The notes under the pieces: model-generated | What the model was told of the DNA's origin: nothing | Databases searched by the model: none | What the model saw: only the letters and a program-made list of their open reading frames with translations | Shown: piece by piece, positions 6,901 through 60,891 of the stretch | How the letters are laid out: the number at the start of each line of letters is the position of its first letter | How positions within the stretch are numbered: position 1 is the first letter of the stretch | Source of the DNA: Raja brachyura | Taxonomy: Eukaryota | Assembly: GCA_963514005.1 (NCBI GenBank) | Contig: OY740787.1 | Location: forward strand, 14,756,001 to 14,820,000 | DNA: 64,000 bases | Reading direction: 5' to 3' | Made by a program: the position numbers and the translations under genes

Positions 6901-7447
6901 AATTCACTCAATCTCCTTTTTTTTGTATTGAGGACAGAAAATATTGGAAACACCCAGCAGGTCAGGCAGCATCCGTGGAAGGAGAAACCAAATTAACATT
7001 TCAGATTCCCAGCAAAAAACAGTTTTGTAATTTTCCGTCACTTTCCAATTTTCTGTGGCGGCATTCATTATTCCAATATCATTCATGAACCTGGGAGTAA
7101 TTGGAAAATGTATTTGGGAAAACCTTAGAAATAATCTCACGTCAATGGGTTTTGCACAATTAGATGTTAAAAGAGACAAATGTCTGAAGATCTGCATAGA
7201 TTTAGTGTTACAGTTCTAATTCTGAATATTAGAGAATTAGTTGCAAACCTTTTCAATTTTAATTGCATTGATCAAAATCAACACTTCAGTCAAGCATGTG
7301 AATGATATGCATGGTATACAAGTAATTGTGTGGGGGGGGGAAGCATGATGATTATCTTATCATATTGGGGGATAGGATTATTGCATAAGTTTCAATAAAG
7401 ATATCAATGACAGGTAAATTGTTATTGTTTCCCCTTCCTCCATACAG

Positions 7448-7696
7448 AAGTCGAAAGCCCTTGGCCTGACTATATAAGAGAGCGCAGGAATGCAATCTCA
7501 ATGCGGCCACACGGGACAGGGCAGTCCTATTGCAAGATAAATGAAGAGCCGTGCAGCTCCAGTGAAGACACTAGCTCGTCCTCAAAAATCAAGAACTCTC
7601 TGGGCTCACTGCCGCATTTAACCGAGCCGCAAACTCCCTACCGGGCAGTGTGTTTGTCAGTGGACCCCCGAAATGGCTACATGGACCAACGCTATT
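7448..7696 (+). CDS. GLI2: GLI-family coding exon (GLI2 locus; homologous to GLI3 exon 3), 249 bp, phase 1-1
   Basis: Polypyrimidine acceptor tttccccttcctccatacag| and donor |gtacgt. Translates (E)VESPWPDYIRERRNAISMRPHG...EEPCSSS...GSLPHLTEPQTPYRAVCLSVDPRNGYMDQRY, collinear with human GLI3 [21 protein letters not shown]...EEPSTSS...[31 protein letters not shown] (recalled). Joins in frame to the 60786 exon (TAT T|CC TCG CAC). Confidence 0.88.
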
Positions 7697-8719
7697 GTAC
7701 GTATTTACTCATCTGCTACTCATTTATGTTTTACACGGAAAAGCCCTCGCATTGGGCTGCGATTCCACTCGATCATGTAAAATTGTAAATGAGTCAGAAT
7801 AGTAACACTTCTTTTTAAAAGATGATCACACATATTTGTCTGGTCCATCCATGCCTTGTATCGCTGTAATTTCAAACTTTTTTTTAACACTATCTATCTG
7901 ATGAAATCATTCATATTGTAAAGTGATCCTGCTGCTCCATGGTAAACATTTGCATGTTGCTCTGTGTTGGAAAATGGCATGCTTCCAGAGGTACAGGTCA
8001 GTACGACTTTTGATGGGATATTTTTCAACAGTAGATGTAATTTATTATAGGAAGGTTACAGGTCAAAGGTATCTTAACTCGGAGCAAAGGCAAGATCTAT
8101 GGGGATTATCCGAGGACATTAAGTGATGCCTTAGAAGAGAGTGGATAAGCACAGCCAATTACTTTGCTATCCTTTTGACACATCTAGAGAAACTAATTGG
8201 CAATGGGCTCGCCTTTGACTGGAAGACAAATTTGTTTTTTGAATTTCTCAAGACGAGGGAAGAAGGGTCCAAAATGTAATTTGCATTTGGCAATATGTTA
8301 AGCCACAAGTCAAAACTCAGGAGAAGTTGCAGTTAAGATTGCCGGGAAGAAATTAAACTCTGGATTTGTTGTCTTCAAGATGATGTTAAGAATGCAGAGG
8401 GGAAATTACTGTTGACCGATACTTTGAGCTGTGTGTAGCATTGATCATTAAAACTTACTTCCCTGCATTGTGGTAGATAGGCTACGTGAAATGGATTAAG
8501 GAGGGAAAATGCCAAATCACGTGATGGGGGCGCCACATTAAACGTCTTCTCTTAGTTTCACTGCCTGGTATTTTTATCTAAATGATTTTGAGTGGCATAC
8601 AGAAGCTTATGATCCAAGGCTAATTAATCCACGCTGCATTTTGATGACTACATTTCATGCTTTGCTGCAAATCAAAATGGAACGATCCTTTTATGAATTT
8701 CAAATGATGGTACTGTGAG

Positions 8720-60785: not shown

Positions 60786-60891
60786 CCTCGCACCACATCT
60801 TCCCGGCGTTCCACACGCCGATACCCATCGACATGCGGCATCACGAGGGACGGTACCATTACGAGCCGCACTCTATCCACGCCATTCACGG
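60786..60891 (+). CDS. GLI2: GLI2 coding exon (N-terminal repressor region), 106 bp
   Basis: Branch-like ctaat plus ttttctttatttgtttcag| acceptor, and |gtaggt donor. Encodes [40 protein letters not shown] and YEPHS(I/V)H are GLI2-diagnostic (GLI3 has IDARH and YDPSP). 106 bp is the recalled length of the orthologous GLI2/GLI3 exon. Confidence 0.93.

Follow-up and report, generated by a model that had tools for sequence, protein, structure and literature searches.

A GLI3-type exon, spliced and conserved in skate GLI2, was likely inherited from the gene that preceded the GLI2/GLI3 duplication

In Hedgehog signalling, activator and repressor roles are divided between GLI2 and GLI3. The closest described counterpart of the skate GLI2 exon analyzed here is exon 3 of GLI3, which is flanked by the first coding exon on one side and the FHxPxPID exon on the other, has phase 1 at both ends, is framed by the blocks RERRNAI and DPRNGY, and contains an internal methionine and a Ser/Thr run. 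All of these features recur in the GLI2 exon. In contrast, the two exons are only 51-58% identical, GLI3 His 121 corresponds to Arg in the skate GLI2 exon, and no examined GLI3 model skips its copy, which is kept in all sampled jawed vertebrates; of the 84 GLI3 models examined, all 47 that include the first coding exon also contain exon 3.

Automatic NCBI models named GLI2 or GLI2a isoform X1, X2 or X3 (e.g., XP_055494716.1 and XP_032880713.1) already carry the exon and an internal start, and those of 12 species also include the skipped form, but they are silent on the paralogy with GLI3, on the loss in bony vertebrates and on function. Alternative splicing in the 5' coding exons is also known from the human GLI2 forms delta3 and delta4-5 (PMC1435915); as far as the available text of that report goes, these forms break the frame and remove repressor sequence, whereas skipping of the skate exon is frame-neutral, and the exon is lacking in the bony GLI2 proteins examined. 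In amphioxus, a single Gli gene gives long and short splice isoforms, of activator-like and repressor-like character, that were read as GLI2-like and GLI3-like (available text of PMC1955834). There, however, the C-terminal activation region changes and function was assayed, while in elasmobranch GLI2 an N-terminal segment is concerned, which is known from sequence alone. The SPOP-binding motifs of Gli3 and Ci (accessible parts of PMC9289945 and PMC4910529) are likewise short, nonpolar-polar-S/T-rich elements in a disordered N-terminal part, but the skate exon has a single weak candidate, with Pro at position 1. A literature search, conducted apart from most subscription papers and all supplements, returned no prior description of the GLI2 exon, and the available text of a comparison of the human GLI2 locus with those of gar and elephant shark (PMC9292287) mentions no extra exon. 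Events in which a frame-neutral exon is lost after gene duplication are familiar, and automatic annotation already includes the GLI2 exon.

The DNA analyzed (the window) is a stretch of 64,000 nt from Raja brachyura (assembly GCA_963514005.1, contig OY740787.1, positions 14,756,001-14,820,000, forward strand), and all of the features given below lie on its plus strand. The GLI2 coding exon paralogous to GLI3 exon 3 occupies positions 7448-7696 (249 nt), as indicated by the sequence, by transcript contigs and by a profile match. It follows a polypyrimidine tract and AG acceptor (7421-7447), precedes a GTACGT donor (7697-7702), and comprises 83 codons in a single frame that is open throughout. 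The upstream coding exon, which ends in phase 1, is located 94 kb away, outside the window (G000:C7:14669087-14669204). The next exon downstream (60786-60891, 106 nt, phase 1-2) is of the GLI2 type and begins in phase 1, beyond a 53-kb intron (7697-60785). In a tblastn search of Leucoraja GLI2 against the window the exons at 7448-7696 and 60786-60891 were the only ones found, with no further GLI2 exons inside 7697-60785. Because the length of 249 nt is a multiple of three and the phase is 1 on both sides, the exon can be skipped or deleted without damage to the frame: the peptide reads ...R-E-V-E...Y-S-S-H when the exon is included and R-A-S-H when it is skipped. The first-pass annotation had described an open exon with a good acceptor and donor, spliced in frame to a GLI2-type exon and frame-neutral when skipped, and on each of these points it was borne out.

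The likeness to GLI3 was assessed with a profile built from five GLI3 exon-3 peptides alone. Its single match in the six frames of the window was 7448-7696 (86.9 bits, E 2.6e-28), which on this profile search is not a chance resemblance. No Pfam family matched the exon, and two PDB matches to it, which consisted of four 5-6 bit repeats in a protein named 4D2, were judged to be noise. The alternative first exon of a Carcharodon model gave chance-level matches only in the window. The intron at 7697-60785 is rich in repeated fragments, whose translations resemble what we take to be the ends of LINE reverse transcriptases, together with short interspersed repeats.

The genome contains three GLI genes, located on the sequences C7 (the gene of the window), C4 and C42. 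The exons of the C7 gene are 91-97% identical to Leucoraja GLI2, and its zinc-finger exons, found downstream on the same strand (C7:14.91-14.97 Mb), are 92-96% identical to that protein, which itself gives Pfam C2H2 matches. In a terminal-exon tree (30 rows, 863 columns, computed by a quick method), C7 was sister to Leucoraja GLI2 and C4 stood beside Rhinoraja GLI3, with an SH-aLRT of 100 for the GLI2/GLI3 split. Inhibin beta B lies 520 kb upstream of the C7 gene, and a CP2-family gene, putatively TFCP2L1, lies downstream of it on the opposite strand, a neighbourhood that matches the order INHBB - GLI2 - TFCP2L1, presumably that of the human genome. The GLI3 gene on C4 adjoins inhibin beta A, which stands downstream, and contains a separate copy of the exon that matches that of C7 in slot and phases and is 57% identical to it; C42 carries GLI1. 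Had the window contained GLI3 or a duplicate of it, the exon would be quite ordinary, and its own GLI3-like sequence would be in keeping with such an identity. This identity is, however, ruled out by the tree and the neighbours, since the gene groups with GLI2 and adjoins inhibin beta B while a separate GLI3 with its own exon is found elsewhere, and we give it practically no credence. The locus is skate GLI2 with a GLI3-type exon, and the gene identity proposed from the letters alone is upheld by both phylogeny and synteny. A CP2-family gene is found near all three GLI genes (C7:14.15-15.30 Mb, C4:14.00-14.71 Mb and C42:9.85-9.91 Mb), and an inhibin beta gene near GLI2 and GLI3. The sides differ: the inhibin gene is upstream of GLI2 and downstream of GLI3, and the CP2 gene is upstream of GLI3 but downstream of the other two GLI genes.

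Contigs from four runs were compared with window positions 7000-8200 (1201 nt), and in all four the coverage was confined to 7446/7450-7696. The contigs begin to match at 7446-7450, where the AG matches the last bases of the upstream exon as well, and depart from the genome at 7696. In three of the four runs (X1, X2 and X9, from three studies) they continue from the exon into the first bases of the exon at 60786; the ends of the X1 and X2 contigs past 7696 correspond to its first 30 bases. In X1 and X2, the same contig also extends back into the upstream coding exon, and the X1 contig is identical to the genome over the exon. The inclusion junctions are present in contigs rather than in raw reads, the RNA nature of the three runs being read from the splicing of these contigs, in which rare variants are dropped. 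Five of the seven distinct substitutions observed in the exon among related runs are synonymous. In X9, two different contigs, of 611 and 659 nt, reach only 30 bases into the exon (window 7446-7475), and their upstream letters agree only at 0.62. This pair suggests that two different upstream exons are spliced into the exon, which would agree with those models whose start is the internal ATG, with alleles as the alternative reason.

The exon is not peculiar to the genome of R. brachyura. It is contained in 23 NCBI GLI2 proteins, representing 14 named species of sharks and rays and one further assembly, and it is 89-98% identical in the 11 elasmobranch GLI2 models compared (96-98% in skates). 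The claim that the exon was kept in a chondrichthyan GLI2 thus stands as regards its presence, but the exon proved to be elasmobranch-wide and already included in NCBI models. Among bony vertebrates, it was found in none of the 107 GLI2 cluster representatives (the best score, 9.2 bits, fell elsewhere in the protein) and in none of 52 further cluster members, 37 of which extend to the motif of the next exon. The bony proteins surveyed span gar, bowfin, reedfish, bichir, sturgeons, paddlefish, lungfish, caecilians, reptiles, birds and mammals, and the exon is absent from all of the listed isoforms of gar (6), bichir and reedfish (5), sturgeon and paddlefish (9), bowfin, lungfish and caecilians. 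Every bony-vertebrate GLI2 protein retrieved thus lacks it, in agreement with what the first-pass annotation gave for canonical GLI2 of human, chicken and zebrafish; this absence concerns protein models, not intron DNA, and one of the retrieval queries favoured skipped forms. When the query contained the exon, bony GLI2 was missing from the best 120 of 600 matches. The GLI2 proteins of chimaera and coelacanth were absent from the best-120 lists of both protein searches, while their GLI3 proteins were present, and their GLI2 models may lack N-terminal exons. Among the 50%-identity representatives, 39 matches were obtained, comprising 38 GLI3-like proteins and one repeat artefact, with no sequence from lamprey, hagfish or amphioxus; elasmobranch GLI2 itself was not among them, so that the blank for lampreys, chimaera and bony GLI2 in this set carries no weight.

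Judged by its sequence, the skate GLI2 exon is a paralogue of GLI3 exon 3: the homology spans the whole exon, and the position and intron phases are the same. Compared with 18 GLI3 peptides, it is 51-58% identical, whatever the lineage (52-58% to shark GLI3 and 51-57% to bony GLI3), while shark and bony GLI3 are 70-81% identical to one another over the same exon. Since it is equally distant from shark and bony GLI3, the exon is likely older than the jawed-vertebrate split and lost in bony vertebrates. An unrooted tree of the exon (82 columns), in which most branches lack resolution, has a long branch that separates the 12 GLI2 copies from the rest, and these copies are not nested in shark GLI3. 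On these sequence comparisons, which cover jawed vertebrates only, the simplest reading is that the exon is likely ancestral, having been present before the GLI2/GLI3 duplication and later lost once, from bony-vertebrate GLI2. Skate GLI1 cannot polarize the change, as no match to the exon or to the next two N-terminal exons was found in the 40 kb upstream of its zinc fingers (G000:C42:9815501-9855500). Mammalian GLI1 is likewise known to lack these N-terminal exons. The skate GLI1 gene is compact compared with GLI2 and GLI3.

An exon that arose in GLI3 after the duplication and was then copied into GLI2 in the cartilaginous-fish lineage would account for its occurrence in elasmobranch GLI2 only, and its fourfold sites are shared with the GLI3 of the same genome slightly, though not significantly, more often than those of six other exons (7 of 14 versus 78 of 254, p 0.15). 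These sites, which are few, give no sign of recent copying. The exon, however, is no nearer to shark GLI3 than to bony GLI3, the two flanking exons (28-42% and 61-64%) bracket its GLI2-GLI3 identity, and it stands in the corresponding slot, with identical phases, on a different chromosome and within a span of 147 kb. It has, moreover, evolved slowly since sharks and rays separated: between the skate and three sharks it is 87-91% identical, versus 80-83% for the C-terminal part and 85-92% for the first coding exon. Copying is thus very unlikely. It is somewhat less improbable, although still unlikely, that in certain basal bony fishes or tetrapods an intron of GLI2 still harbours the exon, intact or decayed but unannotated, such that its loss was multiple or incomplete. 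The survey of bony GLI2 was of proteins only and left out coelacanth, and a human GLI2 intron listed as intron 1 retains elements shared with elephant shark (Table 1 in the available text of PMC9292287); yet the listed isoforms of gar, bichir and reedfish, sturgeon and paddlefish, bowfin, lungfish and caecilians lack the exon, although the pipelines concerned do annotate it for sharks and for GLI3. Around the directly observed exon, spliced in GLI2 and homologous to GLI3 exon 3 in the same position and phases, the likely history is inheritance from the pre-duplication gene, retention in sharks and rays, and loss from GLI2 in the bony ancestor. The first-pass annotation had stated as much; its dating fits the divergence, which places the origin before the shark/bony split, whereas its loss or skipping in bony vertebrates is read from proteins only, and no exon-bearing outgroup was found for the duplication itself.

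The use of the exon appears to be optional in part of the elasmobranchs. In 12 NCBI GLI2 models from 12 species (sharks, sawfish and stingrays), the first coding exon is joined straight to the next and the exon is skipped, and nine species have both included and skipped models; these models are automatic and do not consist of reads. In skates, a skipped form was seen neither in the contigs of X1, X2 and X9 nor in the NCBI models of the three annotated species, Amblyraja, Leucoraja and Rhinoraja (all 8 named cluster members). Single contigs also span the downstream junction in X1, X2 and X9. The exon may thus be effectively constitutive in sharks and rays, with the skipped models representing rare noise or guidance by bony proteins and no regulated switch at all, which would be compatible with an ancestral origin. 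This is a possible reading but not the favoured one: the same skipped junction recurs in 12 species and in none of the 47 GLI3 models, a protein-guided artefact would be expected in skates too, and contigs lose rare variants. Skipping appears to be specific to GLI2: it is modelled for sharks, sawfish and stingrays, but none of the GLI3 models examined shows it. Optional use of the exon was thus probably the route to its later loss. The proposal that splicing could switch between GLI2-like and GLI3-like N-termini agrees with the 12 species that have skipped models, but no skipped form was seen in skates and the term switch is overstated, since the exon overlaps only about the first 17 residues of the repressor domain, the His tested there is dispensable, and processing is set downstream of the zinc fingers.

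The GLI3 counterpart of the exon corresponds to about residues 43-122 of a 1580-residue primate protein. The repressor domain of GLI3 has been mapped to G106-E236; mutation of H121 was without effect, while H141A and H157N abolished repression (available text of PMC3798401). Both H141 and H157 fall in downstream exons that GLI2 shares. Processing to the repressor is determined by a domain downstream of the zinc fingers (accessible part of PMC6406693), and the N-terminus of GLI3 is predicted to be disordered (accessible parts of PMC3798401 and PMC7119169). Since the determinants of repression and processing lie in other exons, inclusion is unlikely to convert GLI2 into GLI3. Inclusion would put 83 more residues, probably disordered, in front of the repressor domain, and it may tune the stability of GLI2 without giving the protein GLI3 character.

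The most invariant blocks of the exon are RERRNAI and DPRNGY. The residues P-C-S-S-S (7549-7563) form a candidate motif that fits the SPOP-binding consensus, nonpolar-polar-S-S/T-S/T (available text of PMC9289945). PCSSS or PCTSS is present in all 23 GLI2 copies of the exon; 21 of these satisfy the strict consensus if Cys is counted as polar, and all 23 do so if S/T is allowed at position 3. At the same site, GLI3 has PSTSS, PSTST or PATSS in 161 of 164 cases. Skate GLI2 has no other motif of this type in its first 400 residues, and none was found before the zinc fingers in the GLI2 proteins of gar, lungfish and reedfish; being short, the motif is expected two to three times per protein from composition, and Ser runs are common in such regions. 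Gli3 1-455 is a SPOP substrate (PMC4910529), Pro at motif position 1 confers weak SPOP binding (PMC8138767), and reports on SPOP and GLI2 are in conflict (PMC6406693), all according to the accessible parts of these papers. The literature search returned no published SPOP motif tested at exactly this site, and no motif positions are given in the available text of PMC12498101 and PMC12159753. Inclusion of the exon might give GLI2 a weak, Ser/Thr-rich site at which the SPOP-Cul3 ubiquitin ligase docks, and would in this way lower the level of the full-length protein.

The exon would also supply an internal start codon. An in-frame ATG (MRPH..., 7501-7503), identified by comparison of models, is the putative start of the NCBI X2 models, and short models of both GLI2 and GLI3 start at this same internal Met (MQP in GLI3). 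An out-of-frame ATG 11 bases before it (within window 7490-7540) opens a short overlapping frame and could damp the internal start. Tentatively, and from sequence features, the candidate SPOP-type degron and the internal start codon together represent the likeliest job of the exon, although even this assignment is doubtful.

A more speculative and rather improbable extension would be a regulated splice choice in elasmobranch GLI2, which would still produce the N-terminus of the pre-duplication GLI2/3 gene and in which inclusion provides a SPOP degron and GLI3-like turnover and skipping gives the bony form; the fixation of skipping by deletion of the exon would then have helped to make GLI2 the stable main activator of Hedgehog signalling. 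If so, elasmobranch GLI2 would be a living intermediate of exon loss via skipping. Cartilaginous fishes are the standard outgroup for studies of fin and limb evolution. The difference of 83 residues between the N-termini of GLI2 and GLI3 likely reflects a loss in bony vertebrates, not a gain in GLI3, and elasmobranchs, which by the NCBI models give both forms from one gene, offer a natural pair for testing this little-studied segment. The exon also has a practical bearing on the cloning and knockdown of skate and shark gli2. In the GLI3 isoform X2 of the chimaera Callorhinchus (P0077), some 28 additional residues, which are absent from other GLI3 proteins, separate exon 3 from the first coding exon.
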